Notes: generated by a model from the sequence alone, not told the origin. A stretch of 64,000 nucleotides of DNA from Candidatus Nomurabacteria bacterium (GCA_023898585.1 CP060229.1:381912-445911), one strand, 5' to 3'. Positions 3,004 to 64,000 are shown, counted from the first letter of the stretch. Numbers and translations: made by a program.

Positions 3004-3006
3004 TCT

Positions 3007-3621: not shown

Positions 3622-3622
3622 G

Positions 3623-38573: not shown

Positions 38574-38773
38574 TGTGTCCGGCGAAACAATACAATATAA
38601 AGATTTATTTGTCTACATTAAAAAAGTCCATAGTGGAACTAAAAAGTCATTATTTTATTCTGTTTCCCAGATATCTAGGACAGTAGGGCACGTACTGTCT
38701 CTCGGGTGGAACCAGTTTGAGGAATTGTGTATTGAATGGCTTGAAGAAGCGAGAGTAATTTTTGTATGAAAAA

Positions 38774-38826
38774 GCCACCCTTCCGCCGAAACGAAAGGGT
38801 CGCTTTCAGTTTCGTGGTTGGGTGGC
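38774..38826 (-). terminator. hairpin gccaccc...gggtggc plus U5 on minus strand, directly after the 116-aa gene
   Basis: 7-bp outer stem with structured loop. The minus-strand RNA is followed by UUUUU. Confidence 0.4.
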
Positions 38827-38827
38827 G

Positions 38828-39178
38828 TCAGTCAGGGCGGCGGCCTTCTTTCCAGCCACCGCATATGGACTTGTAACCAGGCGGGAACGCCTCGTTGAAC
38901 GTGTGACCACCGTGTTCTTCCAGGGCGCGTTGGACTTCCCAGCACACTTCGTCCCGCTGTTCTTCGGTCATGTTGATGAACTGCATGGTGTAGACTCGCG
39001 CCATTGCGTGAATGTCGGGCGACGTTTCGATACTGGGGTCAGTCAGGAAGTTGACGGTAGTGGTGTCGAGTCGCTCGAAGCTCCACCGTTTCTGAAATGC
39101 TGTCTGTACAGCGTGGCGAATGGCTTTCATCTGCGGTACTTCGTCCGCAGTGAAACCGGTCACATCGACAATAGGCAT
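38828..39178 (-). CDS. hypothetical protein (116 aa), possibly tautomerase-superfamily-like (Met-Pro start)
   Basis: MPIVDVTGF... with Pro at position 2, ~116 aa. GC-rich codon usage. Family assignment is weak. Confidence 0.3.
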   Translation of the reverse strand: MPIVDVTGFTADEVPQMKAIRHAVQTAFQKRWSFERLDTTTVNFLTDPSIETSPDIHAMARVYTMQFINMTEEQRDEVCWEVQRALEEHGGHTFNEAFPPGYKSICGGWKEGRRPD

Positions 39179-39189
39179 CGTGTCCTCCT

Positions 39190-39723
39190 TCAGGCCAGGA
39201 AGTTCCGGCCGTCGAGCTTGTCATTGCTGTTTTCGAATGCGTAACGACCGAGCGCCTTGAGTGAGTCAGCGGTCATCCCGGAGATGAGCTGGTCAATACA
39301 CGGTTTTTCGCCCGAGAAGCCGACCACCAGTCCGTGTCGTTTGACGCCGCCCCAGTAGGGCGTGTCGCCCGAGAACAGCAGGTGAGCGTTCGAATCGGTC
39401 TGCCCGTCATCGTTGCGTCCCTGCCAGAGCTGGAGCGCCTTGCAACGGGCGATGTCGTCGAACGGGTACTCCCAGTTATCCTTTTCACCCACGCTCTCTT
39501 CATAGAGCAAGTGCGGGTAAATCGGGTAGTTGGGCCAGTCGGGGTAGTCTTCCGATCGCACGTCGTCCATCGACGGAACGAGGATGACGAGATGACCTTG
39601 GCGACGCTTCATGGCGTCGGCGTAAGGGCCTTCTTCGGCGAATAGTGTGACCGAAAACACCTGCTTGGCCACCTGGGCGGCCAGTTGCGGGGTGAGGTAC
39701 TTGGGGGTGAGCAATTGGCTCAT
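39190..39723 (-). CDS. GlcG/DUF336-family protein
   Basis: GGVKRHGLVVGFSGEKPCIDQLISG resembles the DUF336 core motif. The likely start is the Met at 39723 (the ORF-track frame extends to 39816). Confidence 0.5.
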   Translation of the reverse strand: MSQLLTPKYLTPQLAAQVAKQVFSVTLFAEEGPYADAMKRRQGHLVILVPSMDDVRSEDYPDWPNYPIYPHLLYEESVGEKDNWEYPFDDIARCKALQLWQGRNDDGQTDSNAHLLFSGDTPYWGGVKRHGLVVGFSGEKPCIDQLISGMTADSLKALGRYAFENSNDKLDGRNFLA

Positions 39724-39879
39724 GTCGTTTCTCCACTTGGTTGCGAATTGTGATTGCCGAAATGGCGGGAACTTGTAGATCGTAGTGATCCATAAGCTGG
39801 CAAAAAAGTATAGCAAAAGTCAATTTTTGTAAATACTAACTCGACATTAGTGAAACTAGAATCTTCTGTCTGACCTGGG

Positions 39880-48938: not shown

Positions 48939-49417
48939 ATAAATCGTTCTTTTTCTTTCGAGTAATGATGAACGAGATGGTGGCAATTGTGGCACAACCA
49001 AGCCAAATTTTCAATGCTATTGTTGGAGTGGTTCTCATCAATGTGGTGAACTGCTAATACTCTAGTATCTCCAGAGTTGCATAGTTTACATTTTTTAGGA
49101 GTTTTACCTCGTGAAAGTAAGCTCCGATACGAATGATTACCCGACTTCCAATTAGGGTGCTTTTCTTGAGAGAATTCCCGATTCCTCCACTTTGTTTGGC
49201 AAGACTTGCCACAAAAGAATTTTCCACTTTTTGATCCTTTGAGAGCTTTGGGTGATTTGTATATTTCTTTGTTGCAATAAGAACAGTTTACATATTTACC
49301 AGTTCGAGATGCTTCATGTTGACAGGAGGAAGAACAGTACTTGCCCCAACCTCTCTTTAACCAAGAGGGCTTAGCGTAAAAATCAACCTTACACTTTTCG
49401 CATTGTTTTATAGGCAT
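48923..49417 (-). CDS. HNH endonuclease with N-terminal zinc-finger repeats
   Basis: C-terminal LAVHHIDENHSNNSIENLAWLCHNCH HNH motif. Multiple CxxC pairs. The 3' end overlaps the tRNA-His 5' end by 16 nt. Confidence 0.65.
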   Translation of the reverse strand: MPIKQCEKCKVDFYAKPSWLKRGWGKYCSSSCQHEASRTGKYVNCSYCNKEIYKSPKALKGSKSGKFFCGKSCQTKWRNREFSQEKHPNWKSGNHSYRSLLSRGKTPKKCKLCNSGDTRVLAVHHIDENHSNNSIENLAWLCHNCHHLVHHYSKEKERFMATIV

Positions 49418-49567
49418 AATTCAAGTATAGCAGGTAAGCAAGGCGATTTGCGGTTTAGTTTACAAACCAATGCTCTAACCATTGTTGTAAAACTTGGTTT
49501 TCATTTATTTTCGATAGATGTCGAGTAAGCATTTTTTATACTGGTTTTATAGAGTATAATTATCTCA

Positions 49568-49657
49568 ATGGATCAGACATCATTGTTAGTGGTTTTGTTC
49601 TTTACGCTTATTCTAGGGGCCGGTATCGGTTTTTACGTGGCGAAACTCATTATCTAA
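49568..49657 (+). CDS. candidate small hydrophobic peptide (29 aa)
   Basis: Unlisted ORF MDQTSLLVVLFFTLILGAGIGFYVAKLII, single TM, upstream of mscL. Confidence 0.2.
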   Translation: MDQTSLLVVLFFTLILGAGIGFYVAKLII

Positions 49658-49687
49658 ATAATTTAATTTCATTTAAAATCATTACTT

Positions 49688-50080
49688 ATGAAAGGTTTTA
49701 TTGAGGAATTCAAAGCTTTTGCCGTTAAAGGCAATGTTATAGATTTGGCGGTGGCGGTTGTAATAGGGGCGGCTTTTGGAAAGATCGTCTCTTCCTTAGT
49801 GACTAACATTATTACGCCGTTTATCGGTTTGTTAATGGGGGGGATAGATTTTACCGGATTGGAATACACCATTGGAGATGAAGCGATCACTTATGGTGTC
49901 TTCATTCAGTCAATAGTCGATTTTATAATTGTTGCCATGGTCATTTTCTTGGTTGTTAAAGCGATCAATAAGGCGCAAAATCTTGGTAAGGAAGAGGAAG
50001 AGGAGAAGGAAAAGAAGCCGACTGAACCGGCGGAAGATATTAAATTACTGCGCGAGATTCGCGATATTCTGAAAAAGTAA
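49688..50080 (+). CDS. mscL: large-conductance mechanosensitive channel
   Basis: [27 protein letters not shown]...[12 protein letters not shown] is the canonical MscL. Confidence 0.9.
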
Positions 50081-50102
50081 CTACGGTAGATGAATTAGAA
50101 AA

Positions 50103-50137
50103 ACAGTCGCCGGCCTTTGGCCGGCGACTGTTTTTCC
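50103..50137 (+). terminator. intrinsic terminator after mscL (13-bp stem acagtcgccggcc/ggccggcgactgt plus T5)
   Basis: Perfect stem, loop tttg, ttttt tail. Confidence 0.8.
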
Positions 50138-50324
50138 TTGTCATCCAGAATCTAGATTGGAATAGAAAAATAACCATTTGTATATATTGGCAGGAGTGGA
50201 TTAATGATACGTATTTTGTCATCGTATAAGTTTATCCACAGACTCCGGTTCATAAATTTCAAAAAATCCTTATTCCGGTACCAAAGTGCGATTTGGAAGA
50301 AGTCTTCTTAATGGTAAGATGGAG

Positions 50325-50385
50325 CTATCACACGAGGTTGTCGTGTGTCGGAGGTTAAGACACACGTATTCTTAATTTAAGAATC
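50325..50385 (+). promoter_or_regulatory. nrdBA leader with mutually exclusive hairpins and AT-rich dyad (candidate attenuator / operator)
   Basis: cacacgag(50329-36)/gtcgtgtg(50340-47) versus cgtgtgtc(50342-49)/gacacacg(50359-66). 17-bp perfect palindrome attcttaaTttaagaat at 50368-50384. Confidence 0.35.
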
Positions 50386-50544
50386 AAGTCATAAAGGAGT
50401 TTTCAACGACCGTGTGTTGTCGCTCTTTGATTGCCTTTGGACATAAACGACCATCTCCACCAGAGATGGCAAGTTTTTCCACCGATTATGTTTGAAGGCA
50501 ATAAGCCCTTATAGTTTATTCGTTGACCAAATGTATAGATTGAT

Positions 50545-51858
50545 ATGAAAATCGAGAGTATTCGCAAACGTGATGGATCGATCCAGCCCTTTGACATTAA
50601 AAAGATTGTTAATGCCATCACCAAGGCCCTCAATGAGACAAGGGAAGGTGGTCAGAAAGAGGCGGAAGATGTCGCGGAATTGGCCTATGAAAAAGTTGTC
50701 TCCATGTGTGTTGAGGCAACGGAAGCCGACCCGGAAGATCCGATGGCGCAGAAGTGTATAGATGGCAGTCCTTCAGTGGAAGAAATTCAAGACTTGGTAG
50801 AGCAAGCCTTGATGGAAAAGGACTACTACAATACAGCCAAGGCCTACATCATTTATCGTAATGCGCGTAAGAAAATGCGTGAGCGAGATATCTTTGCAAA
50901 GCGTCAAAATCTCAAACCATACGAATATCCAGAACTGTACGAATATACCGATTCAATTCGCCATTCATATTGGGTACATACTGAGTTTAATTACACTTCC
51001 GACGTACAAGATTTTCACGTTAATGTCACGGAAGCGGAAAGAACCGCTATCAAGCACTCGATGTTGGCGATTGCTCAAATTGAAGTGGCGGTAAAGACAT
51101 TCTGGGGAGACATCTATAAAAAAATGCCCAAGCCTGAGATCGGAGCGGTAGGGGCCACTTTTGCCGAAAGTGAAGTGCGCCACACTGACGCTTATTCACA
51201 TTTGTTGGAGATACTGGGGCTCAATGATGAGTTTACCGATATTAAAGATATCCCGGTCATTCAAAAACGAATGGATTATCTCGAAAAGGTCATTGATTTG
51301 TCACGCACGGAGGAAGATAAGCAGTATGCTCACTCAATGCTACTTTTTTCGCTTTTCATCGAACATGTTTCTTTGTTTTCACAATTCCTGATTATGATGT
51401 CGTTTAATAAGCATAAAAACTTGTTCAAAGGCATCAGCAACGCGGTTGAAGCCACTTCGAAGGAGGAACAAATTCACGGCATGTTTGGCATTGATGTCAT
51501 CAACATCATAAAAGAAGAGCACCCTGAGTGGTTTGACGATGAATGCAAAGAACTGATTGTGAAGTCCTGCGAAGAAGCCTACGAAGCCGAGTGTAAGATC
51601 GTGGACTGGATTTTTGAAGATGGGGAATTGGACTTCTTACCGGCTACTAACGTGAAAGAGTTTATAAAAAATCGCTTGAATAACTCACTCGCTTCGATCG
51701 GTCTGCCTCGAATATTTGAAGTTAGTGAAGCCTTGCTTGAAGAAACCGACTGGTTTGACAACGAAGTGATAGCGACAAAGCACGTAGACTTCTTCAACAA
51801 GCGATCAATAAACTACAACAAACGGTCGTCAAGTGTCACCAGTGACGATTTGTTTTAA
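50545..51858 (+). CDS. nrdB: class I ribonucleotide reductase beta subunit with N-terminal ATP-cone
   Basis: N-terminal ATP-cone (IRKRDGSIQPFDIKKIVNAITKA). Ferritin-like di-iron motifs EVRHTDAYS and EEQIHGMF. Confidence 0.8.
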   Translation: MKIESIRKRDGSIQPFDIKKIVNAITKALNETREGGQKEAEDVAELAYEKVVSMCVEATEADPEDPMAQKCIDGSPSVEEIQDLVEQALMEKDYYNTAKAYIIYRNARKKMRERDIFAKRQNLKPYEYPELYEYTDSIRHSYWVHTEFNYTSDVQDFHVNVTEAERTAIKHSMLAIAQIEVAVKTFWGDIYKKMPKPEIGAVGATFAESEVRHTDAYSHLLEILGLNDEFTDIKDIPVIQKRMDYLEKVIDLSRTEEDKQYAHSMLLFSLFIEHVSLFSQFLIMMSFNKHKNLFKGISNAVEATSKEEQIHGMFGIDVINIIKEEHPEWFDDECKELIVKSCEEAYEAECKIVDWIFEDGELDFLPATNVKEFIKNRLNNSLASIGLPRIFEVSEALLEETDWFDNEVIATKHVDFFNKRSINYNKRSSSVTSDDLF

Positions 51859-51910
51859 ACTATGGGCAAGAGGCAATCATTTTTATAAATTAATCACGAA
51901 TAAAATACTT

Positions 51911-53605
51911 ATGGAACCCTGGTACTGGTTGAACGAAAATAGTCGCGCTTTTCTAGCAAGAGGCTATCTGTCCGAGGGGCAGACCGCCGAAGAACGCATT
52001 CGAGTGATAGCCGACAGAGCCGAACAAATCTTAAACAAAAAAGGTTTTTCGGATAAATTCTACGAGTACATGTCGAAGGGTTGGATCTCGCTCGCTTCAC
52101 CGGTGTGGTCTAATTTCGGTTTGAAAAGAGGTCTGCCTATAAGTTGCTTCGGTTCCTATCTCGACGACAATATGGGAAGCATACTCTTCACCAATGCGGA
52201 AGTGGGGATGATGAGCAAGTACGGAGGCGGTTGCTCCGGCTACTTTGGGGCATTGCGACCGCGCGGAGCGGAAATAGCGGGCGACAATGGTCATTCTTCC
52301 GGTTCCGTGCATTTTATGCAATTGTTCGAAACTTTGATAAATGTTGTTAGCCAGGGTTCGGTGCGACGCGGACATCTGTCCCCCTACTTACCGGCTGAGC
52401 ATCCTGACATCATGGAATTCCTTGATATCGGCACCGAAGGAAATCCGATTCAAATGTTGACACACGGGGTGACAGTAGGGGACGACTGGATGGAAAGCAT
52501 GATAGATGGCGATGAGGCAAAGCGAAAAATTTGGGCGCGAATAATCCAAAGACGGGGCGAAATGGGCTATCCGTATATTATGTTCAGTGATACGGCCAAC
52601 AAGAATACGGTTGATGTCTACAAAGAGAAAAAATTGAAGATCTACGCCAGCAACATGTGTAGCGAGATCATGTTGCCAAGTAAGGAGGATTGGTCGTTTG
52701 TTTGTTGTCTTTCCTCGATCAACTTGCTTCATTACGGTGCTTGGAAAGATACCGATTTGGTTGAGACGATGATTGCTTTTCTCGACTCGGTGATGGAAGA
52801 TTTTATTTTGAAATTGGAAGATTTGCGTGACTCGGGCGACGATGAAAAGAAGAGGGCTTTTGAATTCATGCAAAGAGCGTATAGTTTTGCTAAAGCGAAC
52901 CGCGCTCTCGGGCTCGGTGTTCTTGGCTACCACTCTCTTCTACAATCCAAAAAATTACCGTTTGAAAGTGAGGAGGCGGCCAAGCTAAACGAAGAAGTGT
53001 TCAAACATATTAGGCTCAAAGCTGACATCTCAACTCAGCAGTTGGCGAAAGATTTTGGCGAACCGGAAGTTTTGAAAGGTTACGGCCGTCGTAACACTAC
53101 TCTAATGGCTATTGCCCCGACTACCTCTTCAGCTTTTATTCTCGGTCAGGTCTCGCAGGGAATCGAGCCGATTTGGTCAAATTGCTACATTAAAGACGTG
53201 GCTAAAATGAAGGTGACGATAAAGAATCCGACTTTGAAAATTTTGCTCAAGGAGAAGAAAAAAGACACCAAAGCGACGTGGGACAGCATCCGTGACAATG
53301 ACGGTTCGGTTCAACATCTTGATTTTCTCAGTGATGAAGAAAAAGCGATCTTCCGCACTTTCGGTGAAATCGACCAAGCTAAAATCATCGAACAAGCGGG
53401 AATCAGACAGAAATATATCGATCAAGGCCAGTCACTTAATGTGATGGTACCACCAAACACTCCCGCCAAAGAGATCAATCAACTTTATATCAAAGCCTGG
53501 AAGGAGGGAATCAAGTCGCTTTATTACCAACATAGCCAAAACGCAGCTCAACAAATGGCTCGTAAAAAATTGGCTGAAAAGGACGCCAAGGAAAACGGAA
53601 AGTAG
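51911..53605 (+). CDS. nrdA: class I ribonucleotide reductase alpha subunit lacking ATP-cone
   Basis: Catalytic NMCSEIMLP (cf. NLCxEI) and the C-terminal tail. The start is taken at Met 51911 after the nrdB stop. Confidence 0.8.
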   Translation: MEPWYWLNENSRAFLARGYLSEGQTAEERIRVIADRAEQILNKKGFSDKFYEYMSKGWISLASPVWSNFGLKRGLPISCFGSYLDDNMGSILFTNAEVGMMSKYGGGCSGYFGALRPRGAEIAGDNGHSSGSVHFMQLFETLINVVSQGSVRRGHLSPYLPAEHPDIMEFLDIGTEGNPIQMLTHGVTVGDDWMESMIDGDEAKRKIWARIIQRRGEMGYPYIMFSDTANKNTVDVYKEKKLKIYASNMCSEIMLPSKEDWSFVCCLSSINLLHYGAWKDTDLVETMIAFLDSVMEDFILKLEDLRDSGDDEKKRAFEFMQRAYSFAKANRALGLGVLGYHSLLQSKKLPFESEEAAKLNEEVFKHIRLKADISTQQLAKDFGEPEVLKGYGRRNTTLMAIAPTTSSAFILGQVSQGIEPIWSNCYIKDVAKMKVTIKNPTLKILLKEKKKDTKATWDSIRDNDGSVQHLDFLSDEEKAIFRTFGEIDQAKIIEQAGIRQKYIDQGQSLNVMVPPNTPAKEINQLYIKAWKEGIKSLYYQHSQNAAQQMARKKLAEKDAKENGK

Positions 53606-53619
53606 GCGAGGAGGATGTT

Positions 53620-53685
53620 ATGACAATTTTGAATGTTTGTCATTGTAGAGCACATCTGAAAACACCATACAACCGAGAAGTATGA
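53620..53685 (+). CDS. candidate small ORF (21 aa, MTILNVCHCRAHLKTPYNREV) with strong SD
   Basis: AGGCGAGGAGG lies 5-8 nt upstream of the ATG. CHC..H residues. Confidence 0.3.
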   Translation: MTILNVCHCRAHLKTPYNREV

Positions 53686-53843
53686 TTGTGTGACACTGCA
53701 ACAAAACAAGAGCATGTCTTCAAAAACCACAATTTCAAGGCGTCAAATCGAGGTACGTGAGACGTGTATGGATATACTGTGAACATATCTAGATGCAGAC
53801 AACGCAGAAATTGAGGGTTTTGGAACATGCTCTAGAGTTAGGG

Positions 53844-53870
53844 ACGGGCACGACCGTAGGTCGTGCCCGT
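53844..53870 (+). terminator. hairpin acgggcacgacc/ggtcgtgcccgt (12-bp stem) plus T-rich tail after the nrd operon
   Basis: Perfect 12-bp stem, loop gta, then tgcttttcc. Confidence 0.65.
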
Positions 53871-53905
53871 TGCTTTTCCAGGCAAGAAGACTAAAATAAA
53901 ATTCT

Positions 53906-54292
53906 ATGAAACAAGACATACAAAAGATCATAAAAGACTTTAAATCAGCCACATTAGCAACCACCGGTCCCAATGGATTGAATGTGGTGCCGATCTCGGT
54001 GGTCGAAGTGTGTGGGGAAGAAATACATCTTTACGATTTCTTTATGAGAAAAACGGCTGAGAATGTAAAGGCGGAGCCGAGGGTCGCTTTTGCTTGTTGG
54101 CATGATTTTGTCGGTTTGCAGATAAAGGCTGACGCTGTTTATGAGACTGAAGGAGAGGATTTTGAGAGAGCTGTCGCGGAGATGAAAAAACGTTTTCCGG
54201 ACAGGACTCTTAGTGGCCTTATTAAACTTACTCCGGTTGAGATCTATGACGTAGCGCCTGAGGCTAGCGCTGATAATATTTTGAGCGCTTGA
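53906..54292 (+). CDS. pyridoxamine 5'-phosphate oxidase-like FMN-binding split-barrel protein
   Basis: ~128 aa with SATLATTGPNGLNVVPISVV, typical of the PNPOx-like family. Confidence 0.6.
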   Translation: MKQDIQKIIKDFKSATLATTGPNGLNVVPISVVEVCGEEIHLYDFFMRKTAENVKAEPRVAFACWHDFVGLQIKADAVYETEGEDFERAVAEMKKRFPDRTLSGLIKLTPVEIYDVAPEASADNILSA

Positions 54293-54307
54293 GTAATCGA
54301 GCTAATC

Positions 54308-54346
54308 GTCCTATCGGGTAGGTGCGAAGCACCTACCCGATAGGAC
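54308..54346 (+). terminator. 18-bp perfect-stem hairpin (gtcctatcgggtaggtgc / gcacctacccgataggac, loop gaa) plus ttt
   Basis: Seen directly. Follows the PNPOx-like gene. Confidence 0.75.
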
Positions 54347-54544
54347 TTTACCTAGCGGTTTTTTGTACAATCAAAGTGCTAATTTTTTATAACCTTAACT
54401 TGTCGCATCAAAAGTGCCCTTTCTAACCCAAATTTTAGAAACTGTTGAAATCTTTTCTTGCGTAAGTGTCAGATAGGGTATAGTAAAAGCACGTAGGGGC
54501 ACCATGCCCTTGCGGACATGTTTCTATTATGAGCTTCGGCTCTG

Positions 54545-54599
54545 ACGGCGCCCGGCAGGGACTACGTATCGCGACTACGCAGTCCCCGCCGGGCGCCGT
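54545..54599. repeat. ~55-bp GC-rich near-perfect palindrome (acggcgcccggc...gccgggcgccgt) in AT-rich intergenic DNA
   Basis: 24-25-bp arms with two G:U-compatible mismatches. Preceded by small UUCG-loop hairpins (54487-54500, 54531-54542). Confidence 0.6.
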
Positions 54600-54641
54600 T
54601 TGTAATGATAATGTTCACTCTGCTATGATTACTATAGTCTT

Positions 54642-55577
54642 ATGGGAAAGACTTACCTCATTTCGCTGTTGTTAACACTCGCCATCGCCGGGGCGTATTG
54701 GTACCAGTCAAACTCTGCAGTTTGTCCTGTTCCCTTAACCTACCGTATAGGCAATATTGATGGTTCGTTTAATATCGAAAAGGAGGAAGCTAAACAGTAT
54801 GCTAAAGTCGCTGAAGATCTTTGGGAGTCTAGGGTAGACCGTGATCTCTTCGTATATGACGAAACGGCTGAGTTTGTAATTGATTTTGTTTTCGACGAAA
54901 GACAACAGACGGCAGATTCACAAGTGGCTCTAAATAATACTCTTGACCAACAAAGGGCGGAAAACGAAAAAGTCATGGAAACGGTTAAAAAACTACAGGC
55001 CGAATACGAATCACTCTTAGCAAATCACCAAGCCAAAGTTAAAGCCTATGAGGCTGATCTTTACGAGTATAATACTACTGTAAATAAATATAATGATCAG
55101 GGCGGGGCCCCTCCGGCTGTTTTTGAAAAGCTTCAATCTGATCTAAAGTCTTTGGATAGAGAAGCGAAAAAGATTGCCGATACTGCGAAGGAACTAAATG
55201 ATCTGGTTTCAGAAATCAATCGCTTAGCCGATCGTGGTAATGAGTTGGTGGAACAGTACAATCAAGAAGTGAGAGAATATAATAAAGAATTTGGATTTAT
55301 CGGAGAATTTACCCAAGGTGATTATCAAGGGGACAGTATCCATGTTTACAAATTTTCGTCTGGCAACGAACTTTCTACCGTCGTAGCTCACGAACTTGGT
55401 CATGCTCTTGGTATTGATCATGTTGAAGGTAGCTCGTCACTCATGTACTATTTATTACAGGATACCGGTGCCACACCGACACTGACAACCAATGACCTTA
55501 AAGCCTATTACGAAGTGTGTGGAGCAAGAGAAACATTCGGTCAAAAAGTAAGAAGAGTGATTCGAGAGTTTTATTAA
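54642..55577 (+). CDS. matrixin/metzincin-like zinc metalloprotease with coiled-coil region
   Basis: HELGHALGIDH (HExxHxxGxxH) plus Met-turn SLMYY. N-terminal TM anchor. Confidence 0.7.
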   Translation: MGKTYLISLLLTLAIAGAYWYQSNSAVCPVPLTYRIGNIDGSFNIEKEEAKQYAKVAEDLWESRVDRDLFVYDETAEFVIDFVFDERQQTADSQVALNNTLDQQRAENEKVMETVKKLQAEYESLLANHQAKVKAYEADLYEYNTTVNKYNDQGGAPPAVFEKLQSDLKSLDREAKKIADTAKELNDLVSEINRLADRGNELVEQYNQEVREYNKEFGFIGEFTQGDYQGDSIHVYKFSSGNELSTVVAHELGHALGIDHVEGSSSLMYYLLQDTGATPTLTTNDLKAYYEVCGARETFGQKVRRVIREFY

Positions 55578-55598
55578 AATAAAATTAATTCAATTAAC

Positions 55599-56393
55599 AT
55601 GAACAACGGATTTTTTAATACTATACAGATGCGTATTTTTGGTGGTTTGGCGATATTAATGTGTATGATCGCCTTAGCTTCGTATGCCTCTTTAAATTTC
55701 GAGAAGATAGGATTTCTAAACCCCTCTCCCGCTACCATTTCGGTGTCAGGCGAAGGGGAAGTTTTGGCCATTCCGGACATTGGAGAATTTTCATTTTCAG
55801 TAAACGCTAAAGGGGAAACTGCGGTCGTGGCCCAAGAAGAATCGGGGACTAAAATAAACGCTATTTTGACATATCTTAAAGAACAAGGAATTGAAGACAA
55901 AGACATCAAAAATCAAAACTACAACCTGTATCCAAAGTGGCGTTATGAAGAGAGGATTTGCCCCATCGGTTCTTACTGTCCGGGTGGGGAAAGGGTACAA
56001 GACGGTTTTGAAGTGACCCAGACCGTGTCGGTAAAACTGCGAGACACAGACAAAGCAGGGTCAATAGTTTCTGGAGTGGGGGAACTGGGGGCTACTAATA
56101 TCGGCAGTCTTTATTTCACAGTTGATGATACTGAAGGACTGCGTGCTGAAGCCAGAGAGAAAGCTATCAAAGACGCTCAAGAAAAAGCGAAGGTGTTAGC
56201 CGAGCAACTTAGTGTCCGGGTAGTTCGTCTTGTTGCCTACAACGAAGGTGAAGGTTATTACGAACCACAGTATATGAAGACCAGAGTTGCCTCTTATGAC
56301 ATGGCTGAAGAAGAGGGTTTTGGCGGAGCGGAAATGCCGGTTGGGGAAGAGAGCACAAAAGTGGTGGTTAATTTGGTTTACGAAGTACGGTAG
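55599..56393 (+). CDS. SIMPL/DUF541-family protein
   Basis: N-terminal TM. Sequence features of the DUF541 (26-kDa periplasmic immunogenic protein) family. Confidence 0.55.
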   Translation: MNNGFFNTIQMRIFGGLAILMCMIALASYASLNFEKIGFLNPSPATISVSGEGEVLAIPDIGEFSFSVNAKGETAVVAQEESGTKINAILTYLKEQGIEDKDIKNQNYNLYPKWRYEERICPIGSYCPGGERVQDGFEVTQTVSVKLRDTDKAGSIVSGVGELGATNIGSLYFTVDDTEGLRAEAREKAIKDAQEKAKVLAEQLSVRVVRLVAYNEGEGYYEPQYMKTRVASYDMAEEEGFGGAEMPVGEESTKVVVNLVYEVR

Positions 56394-56407
56394 GTGGTTG
56401 GGGTAGA

Positions 56408-56470
56408 GTGGGAATTGTAAAGGGGACGACGCCGTAGGCGTCGACACCTTTACAATTCTCCCAACAAGCG
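56408..56470 (+). terminator. long nested hairpin (gggaattgtaaagg...cctttacaattctccc with inner gacgcc-gtag-ggcgtc)
   Basis: Seen directly. Immediately after the 55599-56393 gene. Confidence 0.55.
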
Positions 56471-56568
56471 TATAATCACTGTAAACAAGCCCCCCGAAGG
56501 GGTTTTAAAAATGAGTAAATAAAAGAAGCTTAAGTAACAAATTTTATCACCCTTTCACCCTTATAAAT

Positions 56569-56760
56569 ATGGATAAACTTACAAAATATTTCCGTGATAC
56601 AGCCATTGAATTAAAGCAAGTATCGTGGCCGACTCAGCACCAGGCGATGCTCTACACCGCTCTCGTCATTGGTATTTCCGCGGTTGTGGCACTGTTTGTA
56701 GCGGCTTTTGACTTCGGTTTTTCTCGAATTATCAGCCTATTCGTTAGTTCAATAGAATAA
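56569..56760 (+). CDS. secE: preprotein translocase subunit SecE
   Basis: 63 aa with single C-terminal TM. ELKQVSWPT motif. Followed by nusG. Confidence 0.8.
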   Translation: MDKLTKYFRDTAIELKQVSWPTQHQAMLYTALVIGISAVVALFVAAFDFGFSRIISLFVSSIE

Positions 56761-56761
56761 T

Positions 56762-57307
56762 ATGGCCAAGCAACACAGCACAGGTGAAAGACATTGGTAC
56801 GCTATTCATACCTACTCTGGTTATGAAAACGCTGTTACTCGAAATCTAAAGCAACGCATCGACTCGCTAAACATGCATGACAAAATCTTCAATGTGGTTG
56901 TACCGACTGAGAAGAAGATTCGCGTCAAGGGTGGCAAAAGGGTAACTGAAGAAGAAAGAATATATCCCGGATACGTCTTGGTGGAAATGATCGTTGATGA
57001 TGAGTCTTGGTTTGTGGTTCGAAATACGCCACGAGTGACCGGATTTGTCGGTAGCGGAACCCAGCCAGTTCCTTTGACCGAGTCTGAATACAACGCTTTG
57101 ATGAAGCAAATGACCAGCGAAACGGTAAAGCACAAAGTCGATTTGAGTGTCGGAGACATGGTCATTATTGCCGATGGTCCGTTCAAGGACTTGGAAGGAA
57201 AGGTAGGTGGGGTAGATGAAGAGAGCGGAAAGGTGAAGGTGCTGGTGTCCATGTTTGGTCGCGACACGCCGGTTGAGCTTGATTTTCTTCAGATCAAGAA
57301 GGTGTAA
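56762..57307 (+). CDS. nusG: transcription termination/antitermination factor NusG
   Basis: NGN domain (WYAIHTYSGYENAV) plus KOW (VGDMVIIADGPFKDLEGKV). Confidence 0.9.
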   Translation: MAKQHSTGERHWYAIHTYSGYENAVTRNLKQRIDSLNMHDKIFNVVVPTEKKIRVKGGKRVTEEERIYPGYVLVEMIVDDESWFVVRNTPRVTGFVGSGTQPVPLTESEYNALMKQMTSETVKHKVDLSVGDMVIIADGPFKDLEGKVGGVDEESGKVKVLVSMFGRDTPVELDFLQIKKV

Positions 57308-57420
57308 TTCCGGGGGCTAAAAACTTGCAAAACGAACATTTCTTTTGTACTCTAACCGGGCTTCTAAAAGTGGCCGTAGTTATGGAATATGGTCGCTATC
57401 ACAACATTAAAATTTAAAAA

Positions 57421-57846
57421 ATGGCAAAAAAACTATTAAAACAAGTAAAAGTGCAAGCGGTTGGTGGAAAGGCTACACCCGCTCCACCGCTTGGTCCGGT
57501 TCTGGGTCAAGCCGGTATCAACATCGGCGAGTTTGTTAATCAGTTTAACGAACAAACGCGTGAACGAATGGGCGAAGTCGTGCCTACCGTCATTAATGTT
57601 TACGACGATCGCAGTTTTGATTTTGTGGTCAAGGTTTCACCGATGTCACGTTTGATTCTGAAGAAGATCGGTAAAGACAAAGGTTCTAGTAAAAATCTAG
57701 TCTCCAGCATCGGTACTATCACTAAAGCTCAGGTAAGAGAAGTGGCCGAACAAAAAATGCCTGATCTCAACGCCGCTTCAATCGAAGCAGCCATGAAGAT
57801 CGTCGAAGGTTCTTGCTACACCATGGGTGTAAAAGTGGTCGACTAG
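57421..57846 (+). CDS. rplK: ribosomal protein L11
   Basis: KVQAVGGKATPAPPLGPVLGQAGINI is canonical L11. Confidence 0.9.
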   Translation: MAKKLLKQVKVQAVGGKATPAPPLGPVLGQAGINIGEFVNQFNEQTRERMGEVVPTVINVYDDRSFDFVVKVSPMSRLILKKIGKDKGSSKNLVSSIGTITKAQVREVAEQKMPDLNAASIEAAMKIVEGSCYTMGVKVVD

Positions 57847-57881
57847 TAACGAGATCACCGCAATCAGCTTTGTCAGGCTGT

Positions 57882-57926
57882 AGAAAAAGACTCGACCGGA
57901 TAACTTTCCCCTTCGGGTCTTTTTCT
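57882..57926 (+). terminator. hairpin agaaaaagac...gtctttttct (10-bp outer stem) after rplK, bidirectional A/U-rich arms
   Basis: Arms are exact reverse complements. Inner GC hairpin with ttcg loop. Confidence 0.55.
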
Positions 57927-57957
57927 TTCTCAAAAACTCGCTATACTTTCTCAAATT

Positions 57958-58665
57958 ATGCAATATATTCCGGTAAAAACTCGTATCCTCAAACCTCCCA
58001 AAGACGATCTTTTTTCGGTTTTAGATGAGTATCTGCCTGTGATAAAAGAAAGAGATGTGGTAGTGATCTCATCCAAAGTAGTGGCAATTGGTGAGGGTAG
58101 ATGTGTCAAAGAATCCGATTTTAATAAAAAAGAACACATCGAAAAAGAAGCGGAAGTCATCATTCCTCGTCCGTATTGGAAAGCGCCACTTACTATAACC
58201 AACCATGTTATGGTTTCGAGTTCCGGAGTTGACCGCAGTAACAGTAATGGCTACTACACTTTACTCCCAGCCGATCCTTTTGCCAGTGCTGAAAAAATAT
58301 GCGCTTATCTAAAAAATCGCTTTAAAATCAGGGATTTGGGAATCATCATTACCGACAGTGTATCTAGCCCTTGTCGTTTTGGAGCGACCGGCCGGGCTAT
58401 CGGTTTCTGGGGCTTTGTTCCACTCAAGAATCACATCGGAGAAAAAGATTTATTTGGAAGGAAAATCAAATATGAGAGAGCCAATCTTGTCGATGGAATC
58501 GCTTCTGGGGCCAACGTACTAATGGGGGAGGTGGCCGAGTGCACTCCAATAGTAATAGCGCGCGGACTTGATAACCTGGAATTCAAAGATGGTAATTTCA
58601 AGAACATACTCTTTTGTTCTTTTGCCGAAGATACTTTTCGGATTTTGTACGAGCGATTTTTGTAG
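57958..58665 (+). CDS. CofE-like (F420-0:gamma-glutamyl ligase family) protein
   Basis: VVVISSKVVAIGEGRCV and TPIVIARG resemble the CofE/FbiB-N family. Assignment is tentative. Confidence 0.4.
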   Translation: MQYIPVKTRILKPPKDDLFSVLDEYLPVIKERDVVVISSKVVAIGEGRCVKESDFNKKEHIEKEAEVIIPRPYWKAPLTITNHVMVSSSGVDRSNSNGYYTLLPADPFASAEKICAYLKNRFKIRDLGIIITDSVSSPCRFGATGRAIGFWGFVPLKNHIGEKDLFGRKIKYERANLVDGIASGANVLMGEVAECTPIVIARGLDNLEFKDGNFKNILFCSFAEDTFRILYERFL

Positions 58666-58839
58666 CAATCCACCCTGTTTATAACCTGTTTATAACTCGC
58701 TTGACAACATCTTAATAAGCGGATCTTTTCTTTATTTTAAGCCATATTTATCCCCACGGAAACGAGTTTTTCGATTGCACAAACTATATAATATAACTAA
58801 CCTCGTCATAATAGACAGGGAGAGGTTAAGAAAATTATT

Positions 58840-61800
58840 TTGTTTACTAAAACGACCGAGTCGTATTTCTTTTCGGTAGCCGTTTCGACAGCGGTTGTTT
58901 GCTGTGTTGCTTTTCTGCTACTTACAATCGGAATAGGCTCCCAATTTGTTCCAACCGCCCACGCCGAACCCACCCCCACCATCAACTACCAAGGTAAGCT
59001 AACCGACACCAATGGCCTCGCAGTCCCTGACGGCACATACAACATGCGCTTTTGGCTACTACAAAGCGAAGCGCAAGCGACCACGAGTGCTCTTTGGACA
59101 GAATCTCTCACCGGTAGCAATAAGGTGCAAGTTACCGATGGTCTATTCTCCATCATGCTTGGTTCCACGAGCGCTCTCACTTCCGTTGACTTCAATCAAA
59201 CCCTCTACCTGGGAGTGGAGATAGGTGGTTCCACCACACCCGCTTGGGACGGTGAAATGTCACCTCGTAAACCACTCGGTACCGTCCCGGCTTCTTTCGA
59301 ATCATACAAACTAGGAGGAGTAGCTTCTTCTTCTTTCGTACGATCAGATGTAGCCGATCTAGTATCCGGTCTACTCACATTCGCTGGAGGTTTTGTCAGC
59401 TCCGCTTCGAGCACAATTACAGATTTATTGTTTAGTAGAGCTACCGGCACAACTTTGGTTGTGACAACGTTGGATGTCGGAGGTGAATCGTTCACTAGTT
59501 TAACCGGTACCGGATTACAAAATGACTCAGGTGTATTAACTATAGCCACTAGTTCTCTAAATATCGCTATTGATGAAACCACCGGAACTTTGGCGGTGGC
59601 GCGAGGGGGTACCGGTAGTACCACCCCAACAGGTTTTCTTTTTGGTAATGGAGCAGGTCTTTTAGATTCAGTCAACTTGATAACAAACAGTTACATTGAA
59701 GACGTCTATCTTAGAAATGACGGTGATGATACTACCAGTGGAAAGCTCACGATTGGTGGAGACACCAACGTATCAGATCCTAACTCCAACCTCGGTGGCT
59801 ACTTCATCAACTCCATGCCGGCCGTTACCGGTTCGACCACTCTCAATAACTTTTTCTTTGCGGGGGCGTCAAGCACCAGCTTTTCCTCTGGCGCAAATAA
59901 CTACGCTTTCGGTGAAGGTGCCCTTACCAATCTGTTGTGGGGAAGTAACAACGTTGCAATTGGTAAAAATGCTCTTTATGCCTCCAGTACGGCAGCCACC
60001 TTCTTTTCAGATAACAATGCCTTCGGTGAAGGTGCGCTTTATGCCATAACAGCTGGTGTCAACAATAACGCTTTAGGAAAAGAAACTCTGACCGCAAACA
60101 CCACTGGTTCAGGTAATAATGCCTTAGGTTATCAAGCGTTAAACTACAACATTACTGGTGGTGGTAACAACGCTTTTGGTACTTGGTCTATGGCTTTTAA
60201 CACTTCCGGTTCTGACAATAATGCTATGGGTGTTCAGTCTCTGTATAACAACACAACAGGCACATACAACAACGCCTTTGGTTACGAAGCGATGAACAAT
60301 AACACCACCGGTTCAAATAACAACGCCTTTGGACAACGAGCCCTTCGTAACGGAAACTACAGCACATACAACAACGCTTTTGGTTATCAAACCATGTTGT
60401 TTAACAGTGTCGGTGCTCACAACAACGCTCTTGGCTACGAAGCTTTGTATAGCAATACTACCGGATCACGTAACAACGCCCTCGGTTACCATACTCTATA
60501 CAACAACAACGGCACCGGCACTATCGCCATCGGCTACCAGACAGCCGACAACGCCACCGGCGTCGACCGCGGTATCTTCATCGGTTACGACATCGACGCC
60601 TTCAGTACCACCGCCGACGATCAGCTCAACATCGGTAACCTTATCTTCGGTAACAACGTCAACGGTACTGGTCAAACCATCAGCTCCGGTAACATCGGTA
60701 TCGCCACTACTTCATCTACTGCTCGCCTCACCGTCCAGTCTACCGGCACCTCCGATATCTTTAATCTCTTTGAAACGGGAGGCAGTGAAGTGTTCACGGT
60801 GTTGGAGAGTGGTAACGTTGGCATCGGCACCTCTTCACCCTTACGCCAAACTCGGCGTAGCCGGTAACCTGGTAGCAACCGGTGTCATCAACACGCAGAC
60901 TAACTCAGCCAACACTTTCGCCGGTCACCTTGACATCAACGGCACCGCCACCTCCACCTTCGCAAACGGCATCGAACTCGAAGGTGGTTGCTTCCGCGAC
61001 CAAAGTGGTACCTGCATCAGCGCTCAAGGTGACACGCAGATAGTAGTCTGCAGCAAACGACACCGACGTCAATCTCAAAGCCTACGCCGACTATGTTGCG
61101 GATGGTACGAACGACCAAGATGAAATCCAGTCTGCTATCGACTACGTCTACGCTAACGGTGGGGGAACCGTTCATCTTCTAGCCGGTACTTTCACCGTTG
61201 GTACCACTACCTACACCGACTCCGCTATCAGACTCGCTACTTTACTCAACTCATTGGACAAGGAGATGCGACCGTCATCAAACTCCGTAACAGCTTCAAC
61301 GCCAACATCTCCATCGTGCACGCGAAAAACGTCCAAGATGTTTACGTTGGACATTTGGCGGTGGATGGAAACAAGGGGAATCAGAGTGGGGGGACGAACT
61401 ATGGTGTACACCTGTACGTCACGGGTTCTAGCACGATCGAAGGAGTCTACTCCTACAACATGCACTCAGTCGGTATTAGGGCTGAAAGTTCATACTATAA
61501 CACAATTACAAATAATATCGTCCGTAACAACATTGACTCCGGTATCACCTCAGATGGAAGTAATACTATTATCAATAACTTCTCTTCAGATAACGGTACC
61601 GGTATTAGGGTTGTTGTTGGTGGACGCGAATTAGTCACCAACAATAGAATTTATGATAACACCACTGGTATTTCTGTGACTGGTTCCGCAAATACTATTT
61701 CTAACAACTACGTATACAGTAACACTGATGGCTTGAAGATAGGAACGCTAGCTGACTGGAACACTGTATCAGGCAATAAATTTGAACTGAACAGCAATTA

Positions 61801-64000
61801 TGGTATTTACATAGACCCCAGTTATTACAACAAACTAACAGATAATCTTTTACTTGGTAACGGATATGGTATTTATACGTCAACCGCTCTTGAACTCGTT
61901 GTTGCCTCAAATGAAATCAGGGGCAACACGACTGCTATTTATTTGAGTAATGGAGGTATAACTGGTGCCGGTAGTAAAGTTACAAACAATTATATCTCTG
62001 ACAACGGTGGCACTGGCGCTACCAGTAGCATTAAATTGGTAAACGAAGACAACGCTCTCATTTCCGGCAACCGCATCTACGACACCGCCGGTTCCGGCTA
62101 CGCTATCGATATAGACGCTGCTTCAAGCAATGTCACCTTGGCCGACAACGTCTACTCCGGCACGGGAGCGACCGCCATCCGCGACCTAAGCTCCAATACC
62201 GAGTACACGGAGCACAACCGCATCACGGTAAACGCCACCGACTCTGACTTTGCTTCTGGCGCATACACCGCGCTTAAAATAACCCAATCCGGTACTGGAG
62301 ACATTGCCAACTTCTTTGATGGCTCCAATGAGGTGCTTACCATCCTTGATGGGGGTAATGTAGGTATTGGCACAACTTCTCCTTCCAGTAAGTTAGAAGT
62401 AAACGGCAACATAACACTTTCTTCCGCTGGCGGAAAAAAAATCACTACTCCGGGAGACGAACTGATACTAGAAAATACTGGAGACACGTTTGGTACGGTC
62501 CAGCTCCTACTTCGTAATCGTAACGGTGCAAATGGAGCTCTGTTTAATAACTTATCACTTGATCTTGTTGATTTTGGGTTCAAAGGTAATTCTGGGTATC
62601 AAAGCAATATTCGTTACGAACACAGATCCGGATATATTCTAGGTGGTTCAGATAATTCAGTGGGCGAATTTCAGCTTATTGATGACGTGGCAGGTACGCC
62701 AAATTACATGTTTACCGTTAACAAAAACGCCTCAGTGTTCCATTCCGGCAACATCGGCATCGGCACCTCCTCACCAAACAGCAAACTAACCATCGCCGGC
62801 AACACCAACGTCTCCAGCTACACCAACCTCCCCGGCTACTTCATCAACAGCATGCCGGCAGTTACCGGTTCTACCACTCTCAACAACTTCTTCTTTGCGG
62901 GGGCGACTTCCAGTAGTTTCTACCTCGGAAGTCATAACTACGCGATGGGAAATGGCGCTCTTACCAACCTCGGTCAAGGAAGCTACAACTTCGCAGTTGG
63001 TGGAAACGCTCTTGCTGGTTCGAGTACGGCTGGTATGCACGGTTCCAGTAACATCGCCCTTGGCTATAGCACTCTTTTTAGTAACGTCTGGGGCGAACAC
63101 AACAACGCTCTTGGTAACGAAGCATTGTATAGCAACACAAACGGTGGAGGTAATAATGCTCTCGGTTACCAAGCTCTTCGCTACAGTACAACCGGTGGAG
63201 CTAACAATGCTCTCGGTTATCAAGCACTCTTCAGTAACGTAACTGGTCACCGTAACAACGCTCTTGGTTACCAAACTCTCTTCTATAACACCACCGGAGC
63301 AGACAATAACGCCATTGGTGACAGCGCACTGTTTGTTAACAGTATCGGTTCACGTAACAATGCTCTTGGTTATAACACCATCTTTAACAACACTGTTGGT
63401 TCCGACAATAACGCAATCGGACATAATGCTTTGTATAGCAATACTACCGGATCACGTAACAACGCCCTCGGTTACCACACTCTATACAGCAACAACGGCA
63501 CCGGCACTATCGCCATCGGCTACCAAACCGCCGACAACGCCCTCTCCGTCGATCGCAGTATCTTCATCGGCTACAACATCGACGCCTTCAGTACCACCGC
63601 CGACGATCAGCTCAACATCGGTAACCTTATCTTCGGTAACAACGTCAACGGTACTGGTCAAACCATCAGCTCCGGTAACATCGGTATCGCCACTACTTCA
63701 TCTACTGCTCGCCTCACCGTCCAGTCTACCGGCACCTCCGATATCCTCAATCTCTTTGAAACGGGAGGCAGTGAAGTGTTCACGGTGTTGGAGAGTGGTA
63801 ATGTTGGGATTGGTGCAAATAATCCTGATGCACGGTTTGTTATAAAAGGGGAAGATGGGGGTGGCCAACCATCCTTCTTAAAGATTCTCGATGAAACCGA
63901 CAGTATAAAATTTCAGATAAACCAATACGGTAATTTCATTGCTAATGCAGGTGGATATTTTTCAGGTTCTGCTGGAACAGCACCACATTCTGCAGCGGTA
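58840..64000 (+). pseudogene. giant surface/tail-fibre-like protein gene, interrupted by three frame breaks. Signal/TM anchor, YadA-head-like 'NNALGYxAL' beta-roll repeats, pectate-lyase-like right-handed beta-helix. Continues past window end.
   Basis: Frame 1 (58840-~60845), frame 2 (~60845-61045), frame 0 (~61047-61250), frame 2 (61220 to window end, open for >900 codons). ~1-kb module duplicated, with a 350-bp ~95% identical core (60481-60830 vs 63461-63810). The frame breaks may be assembly errors. Confidence 0.6.

Follow-up and report, generated by a model that had tools for sequence, protein, structure and literature searches.

A giant modular secreted-protein gene of Paceibacteria with three clustered frame breaks, probably of assembly origin

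At one end of a 64,000-nucleotide stretch of DNA from Candidatus Nomurabacteria bacterium (the window), a very long, repeat-rich coding region changes reading frame three times within 400 bp. The question raised by this locus is whether the breaks belong to the gene or to its assembled sequence. The original prediction described one giant gene for a signal-anchored, repeat-rich fibre-type protein of more than 1700 aa, and offered assembly or polishing damage in a repeat, decay and phase variation as explanations of its breaks. The coding region starts at 58840 on the plus strand, as do all features below, and is open at the window end (64000). It comprises at least 1720 codons of one ancestral ORF. 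The first ORF begins with a TTG codon at 58840 in frame 1 and, when read unrepaired, terminates at 60867. It corresponds to NCBI entry USN92662.1 (H6782_02520), with an identical start, and in that annotation the truncated product of 675 aa was entered as an ordinary CDS. Along the gene the frames are used in the order 1, 2, 0 and 2. The setting is chromosomal, in the secE-nusG-rplK neighbourhood, and is not a prophage. Exact-protein look-ups in public contigs retrieved no second copy of the frameshifted first-ORF allele.

The frame switches, originally placed at about 60845, 61045 and 61240, were refined to 60841, 61049 and 61241/61242. Break 1 is one extra base at 60841 (cccTtac), which moves the frame from 1 to 2. 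Once repaired, the sequence ...GIGTSSPYAKLGVAGN aligns gaplessly to GIGTSTPYTKFAVAGS of homologue P0157 and GIGTSSPFAKLSVVG of P0002. Break 2 is one extra t at 61049 (gtcTgca), which moves the frame from 2 to 0, and P0002 carries the repaired GDTQIVVAANDT unchanged. Two stop codons (tag tag) lie in frame 0 shortly upstream of this break, and the frame-0 piece has no separate start codon before the next one. Break 3 is one base missing after acttt, between 61241 and 61242, which moves the frame from 0 to 2. Here the repaired RLAT[F/L]TQLIGQGD matches LMATSTQLVGQGD of P0002 and NMATSTRLVGQG of P0001.

Removal of bases 60841 and 61049 and addition of one base at 61241/2 merged the frames into a single stop-free product of 1720 aa, with coding continuous from the third break to 64000 as had been proposed. 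The repaired sites read GIGTSSPYAKLGVAG, GDTQIVVAANDT and RLAT?TQLIGQG, and the product is gapless over all three against the intact P0157 of 4147 aa (three times) and against P0002. P0001 and P0003 span sites 2 and 3. The breaks interrupt a single ancestral ORF, because intact homologues read straight across all three sites in one frame. The region is one giant, modular, secreted fibre-like surface-protein gene of a tiny-genome Paceibacteria (Patescibacteria/CPR) bacterium, as judged from its sequence, and the original description of it stands with small corrections.

The gene opens with a hydrophobic signal sequence (58840-58965, aa 1-42) that ends AHA|EP, as recognized from the ORF listing and the leaders of homologues. 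This leader would fit a cleaved signal peptide as well as the signal anchor of the original prediction. A conserved N-terminal β-sandwich domain with the motif INYQGKLT...WDGEMSPRK follows (58966-59364, aa 43-175). In homologues the conserved domain likewise starts right behind an equivalent hydrophobic leader, and it contains columns that are invariant among them. The domain matched 11,505 representatives at E≤1e-3 (best identity 84%), and in nearly all of the 150 listed matches it lies at residues ∼30–175. A fold search with this domain returned generic Ig/FN3-like matches only. The next segment is a variable linker (59365-59829, aa 176-330), partly conserved in homologues to about aa 250 and divergent thereafter, for which AF2 confidence is low.

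Repeat module 1 (59830-60840) consists of 12 NNA[LF]GxxAL.xNTTGxx units (59899-60522) and a C-terminal cap that ends GNVGIGTSSP. Its paralogue, repeat module 2 (62867-63826), has about 10 units (∼62936-63508), and the two are 68% identical in protein sequence. The two ∼1-kb paralogous modules of the original prediction, ∼95% identical over their last 350 bp, were recovered (95.1%). The near-identical repeat comprises copy A (60443-60825) and copy B (63429-63811), which are 95.6% identical over 383 bp and share an exact run of 170 nt (60590-60759 in copy A). The NNA[LF]G...NTTG pattern was also present as described. Its period is 51 nt or 17 aa, however, and not 15–16 residues.

Between the modules lie a junction segment, a β-helix and a spacer. 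The junction segment (60842-61048) is read in frame 2 as YAKLGVAGN...TATSTFANGIELEGGCFRDQSGTCISAQGDTQIVV; P0157 and P0002 contain it without interruption, P0001 and P0003 in part. The N-terminal cap and first rung of the β-helix (61050-61241) are read in frame 0 as AANDTDVNLKAYADYVADGTNDQDEIQSAIDYVYANGGGTVHLLAGTFTVGTTTYTDSAIRLAT and are very similar to P0002 and P0001. The body of the right-handed parallel β-helix (61242-62260) matched two Pfam families over aa 813-1039, NosD (2.9e-20, 73.1 bits, cut-off 23.6) and Beta_helix (6.6e-20, 71.8 bits, cut-off 25.9), and NCBIfam para_beta_helix TIGR03804 (30.7 bits, cut-off 19.45). The pectate-lyase-like segment of the original prediction is thus present, with both Pfam families above threshold. 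The body is 35–36% identical to P0001 and P0003 over >90% of its length, and related proteins carry Pectate_lyase_3 (PF12708). PDB sequences gave no match to it. Searches for close relatives among 5.8 billion proteins, GTDB genomes and JGI metagenomes found none above 51% identity, and so no independent assembly crosses the breaks. The spacer module (62261-62866) has the junction motifs GNVGIGTTSP and GNIGIGTSSP inside it, near either end, and has no family match. The motifs GNVGIGTxxP and TATSTFANGI..GCF recur at the junctions between modules. The start of a further module (63827-64000) carries the gene out of the window, and the C-terminus lies beyond.

The repeats had been likened to the YadA head, and the sequence does not support this. 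The repaired 1720 aa gave no Pfam match to YadA_head (PF05658) at E≤0.1, and phmmer with the repeat module found nothing at E≤1 among all PDB sequences. YadA_head is defined as a left-handed β-roll repeat of 14 residues, against 17 here. Nor was there a Pfam match to a stalk or anchor in the 1720 aa present, the C-terminus being outside the window. What the repeats do match are families of phage virion and tail-fibre proteins. Module 1 matched the PHROGs phrog_6002 (3.9e-49), phrog_23837 (4e-49) and phrog_4636, a tail spike (8.3e-25), and shares about 40% identity with proteins that bear the name ‘tail fiber domain-containing protein’. Its AF2 model has a β-solenoid core (pLDDT 75–89).

How the breaks arose was approached through their distribution and their sequence context. 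The clustering is not due to chance: with uniform placement, three indels fall within 400 bp with P=0.017 for the 5161-bp gene and P=1e-4 for the window. Taking break 1 as real and the other two as neutral decay gives P=0.016 for their both falling in the next 400 of 3160 bp. The segments between the breaks are still highly similar to homologues, and the used frames contain no stop across 5.1 kb, which gives no sign of decay. The gene therefore does not look like a decaying one: spread-out disabling mutations are absent, and there are only the three indels, all in 400 bp. The homologues, which the original prediction had allowed might be fragmented too, are intact. No other split gene was found among candidate pairs in the 64 kb, and the ORFs of a high-GC region at 37–40 kb are intact. 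No homopolymer run of four or more bases and no tandem repeat was found at any break (contexts ccc/tt, none and ttt). Runs of A8 and G6 elsewhere in the gene are in frame, as is a G5 run inside the broken stretch. Anomalous base composition was considered and discarded: GC3 of the 400-bp segment is 0.55–0.65 against 0.48, within the gene's own variation (sd 0.10).

The window very probably comes from the MAG HK-STAS-PATE-25 (Paceibacteria, OLB19), a Unicycler assembly of Illumina and Nanopore reads (Liu et al. 2021). The link to this MAG rests partly on neighbouring locus tags, which counts against the assembly reading given below. In that study each bin was assembled with Unicycler from Illumina reads and Nanopore reads of mean quality ∼8–9 (Liu et al. 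2021). An independent short-read contig, L001, is identical to the window over 11,504/11,504 bases with 0 gaps, and contig L014 of a sister MAG likewise has 0 gaps against L015–L018; the assemblies are therefore free of indels where short-read contigs exist. L001 follows the window only as far as 60812, at the end of the internal repeat and 29 bp short of break 1. Assembled with MEGAHIT at k=141, it crosses the 170-nt exact repeat, which is longer than k, and continues in frame into a different module of 187 aa that is absent from the window. Apart from one weak match, a search with this tail of L001 found it in no other database protein. Five other short-read contigs end inside the gene. Such ends and divergence suggest paralogy or strain-level variation within it.

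We consider it probable that the breaks are an artefact of a long-read-derived, poorly polished stretch beside a repeat that short reads do not resolve. This reading is favoured by the hybrid assembly, the clustering within 400 bp, the departure of L001 29 bp upstream and the lack of decay elsewhere, so that, of the explanations first offered, damage in a repeat fits best. The assembler would fill the stretch after the internal repeat, inferred to extend from 60813 to ∼61250, from error-prone long reads. Short-read polishing would fail there and leave three single-base indels, and the real gene would be an intact ORF. Several observations count against this. Unicycler normally polishes with short reads, and their estimated depth is not low, provided that the abundance column gives percentages. 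Nanopore errors concentrate in long homopolymers, and the breaks have none. The truncated product passed as a normal CDS in the NCBI annotation. Judging by L001, structural variation at the break-1 junction itself may be real, so that a biological cause at a recombination joint is possible.

A possible but distinctly less probable course is that the indels are real, and that a giant gene was very recently truncated to a 675-aa secreted protein (the N-terminal domain plus one repeat module), with at least 1050 downstream codons now a young pseudogene. Error-prone repair synthesis could have introduced the indels, at the joint of a recombination or gene conversion that ends at ∼60825. Break 1 does lie 16–29 bp past the 95.6%-identical conversion tract, where L001 carries a different module, and its context and those of the other breaks are atypical of homopolymer errors. 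Many homologues that share the N-terminal domain are only 400–900 aa long, so a short product would be viable, and loss or variation often affects surface fibres. Under neutral decay, however, three indels in 400 bp and none in the other 4.7 kb are unlikely (P∼0.016–0.017). No stop or further indel has accumulated downstream, and the second and third indels are of no benefit, as the three together do not restore the frame. Such clusters are, moreover, a known failure mode of hybrid assemblies, of which the source is one. It is rather doubtful that the breaks and the L001 continuation are both real, which would make this a hypervariable fibre gene that exchanges or loses whole modules through recombination at conserved junction repeats. 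Were this so, GNVGIGTxxP and the 383-bp near-identical tract would be the recombination sites, strains 100% identical over >11 kb would carry different distal modules, and error-prone joint repair would have left the indel cluster. The locus would then be a tail-fibre-like cassette system by which a CPR episymbiont varies its host range.

It is unlikely that beyond 60812 the window follows a wrong or minority join, by which the assembler went from the first repeat copy into a segment of another copy or haplotype; the errors would then mark a poorly supported junction, and the artefact would be structural as well as at base level. The passage of L001 through the 170-nt repeat into an in-frame module that the window lacks would agree with this, as would the breaking of five other short-read contigs within the gene. 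However, the order in the window (GNVGIGTSSP, YAKLGVAGN, TATSTFANGI..GCF, β-helix) is that of P0157 and P0002, which makes the join a natural one, and L001 could itself be a chimera or come from a different strain. Functional breaks, whether by slipped-strand phase variation or by programmed ribosomal frameshifting to full length, are very improbable. Surface adhesins are classic phase-variable genes, and CCC UUA at site 1 could in principle permit +1 slippage of tRNA-Pro. The phase variation of the original prediction was nonetheless rejected, together with programmed frameshifting: the sites have no repeat tract while longer homopolymers up to A8 stay in frame, sites 2 and 3 have no X XXY YYZ slippery motif, three events of mixed sign would have to follow one another, and the homologues are single-frame throughout. 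That the pieces are separate genes produced by gene fission is barely credible. NCBI does list the 675-aa first part as a CDS of its own, but the frame-0 piece lacks a start codon, no signal peptide is present in the pieces downstream, and the breaks split one folded unit, the β-helix cap from its body, which is continuous in homologues.

As it stands, the locus matters chiefly for data quality: three uncorrected single-base errors very probably persist in the deposited genome, where they reduce a gene of >1720 codons to a ‘hypothetical protein’ of 675 aa and a remainder without annotation. Surveys that rely on the annotation to find CPR surface proteins will overlook the gene or give it the wrong size. 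Paralogy and strain variation at this gene are resolvable from each other only by long, accurate reads. The repaired protein would be exported by the Sec system and would consist of the N-terminal β-sandwich followed by interchangeable modules, namely the 17-residue solenoid, a tailspike or pectate-lyase-type β-helix, and spacers.

Among known systems the closest is a large family of secreted proteins of Paceibacteria/Parcubacteria that includes P0157, P0156 (2913 aa) and P0158 (1382 aa). Their N-terminal domains are 80–84% identical to that of the window copy and lie at the same position. They share the junction motifs, at least one NosD/Beta_helix module and the mosaic architecture, although their ORFs are intact whereas the window copy is frame-broken. 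P0157 and P0156 differ in carrying LVIVD repeats and in module content; Pfam lists no 17-residue block in them, but no Pfam model matches that repeat. The gene is an ordinary member of this very large, unnamed and uncharacterised family of exported giant proteins of Paceibacteria, which are made up of phage-fibre-like modules and number >11,000 cluster representatives by N-terminal domain. We know of no Pfam model for the INYQGKLT...WDGEMSPRK family and of no studied member. It is plausible that proteins with this N-terminal domain are host-attachment organelles of episymbionts.

The Bacteroidota ‘tail fiber domain-containing proteins’ and PHROGs 6002, 23837 and 4636 have in common with the gene the 17-residue NTA[IL]GxxAL.xNTTGxx β-solenoid repeat. 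Identity is ∼35–45% over 200–300 aa, with GNVGIGTxxP-type junctions shared, and the TATSTFANGI..GCF motif of the junction segment recurs in a phage tail-fibre-connector-like ORF. Many of these relatives end in the Peptidase_S74 chaperone (PF13884), which is absent from the 1720 aa upstream of the window end. Unlike these fibre and spike families, the gene has a different N-terminal domain and a chromosomal locus. The NosD and Beta_helix matches place its β-helix with the pectate-lyase superfamily, NosD and tailspike depolymerases, and the ‘DGTNDQDEIQSAIDYV..GGGTVHLLAGTF’ cap is similar to the beginning of Pectate_lyase_3-type domains; unlike those β-helix proteins, it matches no solved structure in sequence. 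Among trimeric autotransporter heads (YadA, UspA1, BpaC), the YadA_head repeat differs in length. The original prediction had called giant fibres typical of small-genome episymbionts, and giant surface proteins have indeed been reported in CPR epibionts: those of Vampirococcus lugosii (1392–4163 aa) have a proposed role in host recognition and attachment (PMC8080830). The V. lugosii proteins have other domains (PKD, WD40, integrin, fibronectin), and no homology is claimed, yet they too are very large, exported and repeat-rich and come from genomes of ∼1 Mb. The analogy with these giant proteins of CPR epibionts, and with phage tail fibres and tailspikes, suggests that the protein would most likely project from the cell and bind, perhaps cleave, polysaccharide on a partner cell.

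The giant fibre-like gene starts with a TTG codon at 58840. The ORF list and the three-frame translation place its first piece, ORF1, in frame 1, ending at a stop at 60867. Recognisable coding then goes on in frame 2 to ~61048, in frame 0 at 61047-61241, and once more in frame 2, which has no stop between 61157 and the window end. The first break is one base too many at 60841 (tca ccc Tta cgc), the second a surplus t at 61049 (gta gtc T gca gca), and the third a single base lost after gct act tt- at 61241/61242. Removing two bases and adding one gave a repaired product of 1720 residues with zero stops, which bears out the frame switches in a gene of more than 1700 aa that the original prediction had described. 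The indels are ~200 bp apart, all three inside 400 bp, and no comparable split genes were found in the remaining 63.6 kb of the window. If the indels were placed uniformly, three so close together would have P=0.017 for the gene and 1e-4 for the window.

Each break is one nucleotide gained or lost in an ORF that was ancestrally continuous. When homologous proteins were aligned with the repaired product, all three sites read through uninterrupted. P0157, an intact homologue of 4147 aa whose N-terminal domain is 82% identical to that of the window protein, carries three copies of the junction-plus-beta-helix module. The best of them matches the repaired window with 55% identity over 229 positions, and the 3 gap positions are all distant from the break sites. 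P0002 reads GIGTSSPFAKLSVVG, GDTQIVVAANDT and LMATSTQLVGQGD at sites 1, 2 and 3, respectively, and GDTQIVVAANDT agrees exactly with the window once repaired. P0001 and P0003 are unbroken across sites 2 and 3. Fragmentation of the homologues as well, a prospect raised earlier, was thus not what we found at the sites covered. Gene fission was excluded because the homologues are continuous, the breaks separate the cap from the body of one beta-helix, and three-frame translation of the region revealed no start codon for the frame-0 segment, which has two stop codons immediately upstream.

The earlier description of the sequence features was correct except for repeat length. The repeats recur every 51 nt (17 aa) instead of every 15-16 residues, and autocorrelation is highest at lags 17 and 34. 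Module 1 contains 12 in-register units (aa 354-561) and module 2 ~10 units (aa 1366-1556). The two paralogous ~1-kb modules with near-identical ends are indeed present, as 59830-60840 and 62867-63826 share 68% protein identity, and their distal 383 bp (60443-60825 vs 63429-63811) are 95.6% identical, including a 170-nt exact run.

ORF1 is 100% identical to USN92662.1, annotated 'MAG: hypothetical protein H6782_02520 [Candidatus Nomurabacteria bacterium]'. Very probably the window genome is the HK-STAS-PATE-25 MAG, which has a GC content of 0.433 and is classified as Patescibacteria; Paceibacteria; UBA9983_A; UBA2163; OLB19 (Liu et al. 2021, Microbiome 9:205). In that study Nanopore reads of mean quality ~8-9 were assembled by Flye and binned, then every bin was re-assembled twice in Unicycler using Illumina and Nanopore reads.

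Several short-read contigs derive from the window organism, sampled in the same plant's time series or in similar samples. L001, a MEGAHIT k141 contig, matches window 49309-60812 at 11,504/11,504 bases with zero gaps, while L002 and L004-L010 are 99.95-100% identical to the window. A sister MAG from the same pipeline has zero indels relative to four short-read contigs. A hybrid assembler that starts from short reads would be expected to behave in this way. L001 leaves the window path at 60812, where the internal repeat ends, 29 bp upstream of break 1. Beyond the repeat (L001 11505-11999) it continues in frame into a different 187-aa module (GIGATNPGARLTV...TSTFAGTLDING) that is absent from the window and has no match among database proteins. 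Either strains differ here by a swapped module or the repeat has produced a chimera, and the tail suggests that there may be genuine structural variation at the repeat-end junction. Five independent contigs, L002, L004, L005, L006 and L007, all terminate at 58978-59074, the start of the conserved N-terminal domain, which suggests that paralogues or co-occurring relatives (strain or species micro-heterogeneity) have this domain in common and tangle the assembly graphs.

The three frame breaks are most likely an assembly artefact and not a biological feature. At 170 nt the exact run exceeds the k=141 used for L001, and a de Bruijn graph built with this k is unable to resolve the repeat, so that the window path beyond it would have been set by long reads. 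Assembly or polishing damage, one option of the original prediction, is the best reading because the short-read-covered window is perfect, L001 departs just before break 1, the repeat is unresolvable, the indels cluster beside it, and there are no signs of decay besides the breaks: no stop occurs in the frames used, and between the breaks the sequence stays very close to that of homologues. However, the break contexts are not homopolymers, short-read polishing is normally part of a Unicycler run, L001 hints at real structural variation at the same junction, and the five contig ends at 58978-59074 indicate paralogy or micro-heterogeneity in the community. Because of these points a real, very recent truncation of the gene, possibly made at a recombination joint, keeps a minor but appreciable probability, and a mis-join of the window path is very improbable though still to be counted. 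Truncation is disfavoured by the lack of further decay and by the clustering of the later indels; assuming a real break 1 and neutral change after it, the chance that two more indels fall within the next 400 bp and none in the 2.76 kb beyond is low (P=0.016).

Phase variation, also proposed earlier, was rejected because no break lies in a tract, while A8 and G6 runs elsewhere stay in frame. Programmed frameshifting was likewise rejected: slippery motifs are absent, it would take three shifts of mixed sign, and homologues keep to one frame. The original observation is confirmed and its interpretation supported in part, with assembly damage the most likely of its options and phase variation rejected. 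The YadA-like label was not demonstrable, as the defining head repeat was sought and not found in the 1720 residues seen; the C-terminal end of the gene, where an anchor would lie, is beyond the window. The main value lies in correcting the annotation of the deposited genome and in drawing attention to a candidate strain-variable fibre locus that deserves a closer look.

Several features of the neighbourhood were recorded. An 11-nt unit (CCTGTTTATAA x2) is perfectly duplicated in tandem at 58674-58696, within the 174 bp that separate the giant gene from its upstream neighbour. A CofE or F420-0:gamma-glutamyl ligase-like gene (57958-58665) lies between rplK and the giant gene. In the conserved cluster rplA usually follows rplK; here the CofE-like gene occupies this position, and rplA was not seen beside rplK in the sister genome either. 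In that sister MAG (HK-STAS-PATE-27, JACKGF010000001.1; L014 10001-17449) a DDE transposase and four ORFs are inserted between nusG and rplK, no giant gene is present 3' of the F420-ligase-like gene, and imperfect direct repeats of ~93 nt, ~94% identical, occur at L014 10645-11009. Elsewhere in the window, 2.6 kb on the minus strand (37227-39819) with three intact-looking ORFs of 462, 130 and 209 aa has a GC content of 0.525 vs ~0.42 around it, and this island may have been acquired horizontally. Neither the 462- nor the 209-aa product matched Pfam.

Residues 1-42 of the giant protein form a hydrophobic leader terminating in AHA|EP. Residues 43-175 are a predicted beta-sandwich (pLDDT 84-95) matched by no Pfam model, and a fold search returned only generic Ig/FN3-like neighbours. 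This domain matches 11,505 50%-identity cluster representatives at E<=1e-3, the named ones from MAGs of Nomurabacteria, Kaiserbacteria, Paceibacterota and Parcubacteria. It sits N-terminally in nearly all of the 150 matches listed, whose lengths range from 172 to 4801 aa. Past this domain the homologues are unlike each other, and the family is therefore mosaic. The giant gene is a further member of this large, unnamed and unstudied Paceibacteria family of giant exported proteins. Its central segment has NosD and Beta_helix matches above threshold and a Pectate_lyase_3 type cap motif (PF12708 is present in relatives), in line with the pectate-lyase-like segment proposed earlier; these profile matches mark it as a genuine right-handed parallel beta-helix.

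Neither Pfam nor PDB sequences matched the 17-residue repeats, but PHROGs virion-structural and tail-spike families did, and an AlphaFold model of the repeat module from a 15-sequence alignment has a beta-solenoid core (pLDDT 75-89). Together the results show a phage-fibre-like modular exported protein. By analogy it may bind partner-cell surface polysaccharide, and the role proposed for giant surface proteins of CPR epibionts agrees with partner-surface binding (PMC8080830). A predicted viral contig from IMG/VR, L019 (IMGVR_UViG_3300038307_000159), encodes a 1120-aa tail-fibre-connector-like ORF at 2433-5795 with a hit to the PHROG 'baseplate wedge tail fiber protein connector'; this ORF shares with the window gene the short junction 'NGTATSTFANGI.L..GCF' (53% identity over 49 aa). 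In Bacteroidota, 'tail fiber domain-containing proteins' resemble the window repeats at ~40% identity, and many of them terminate in Peptidase_S74. The modules of the giant gene are common to phage and Bacteroidota tail-fibre-like proteins and to the pectin-lyase-fold superfamily.
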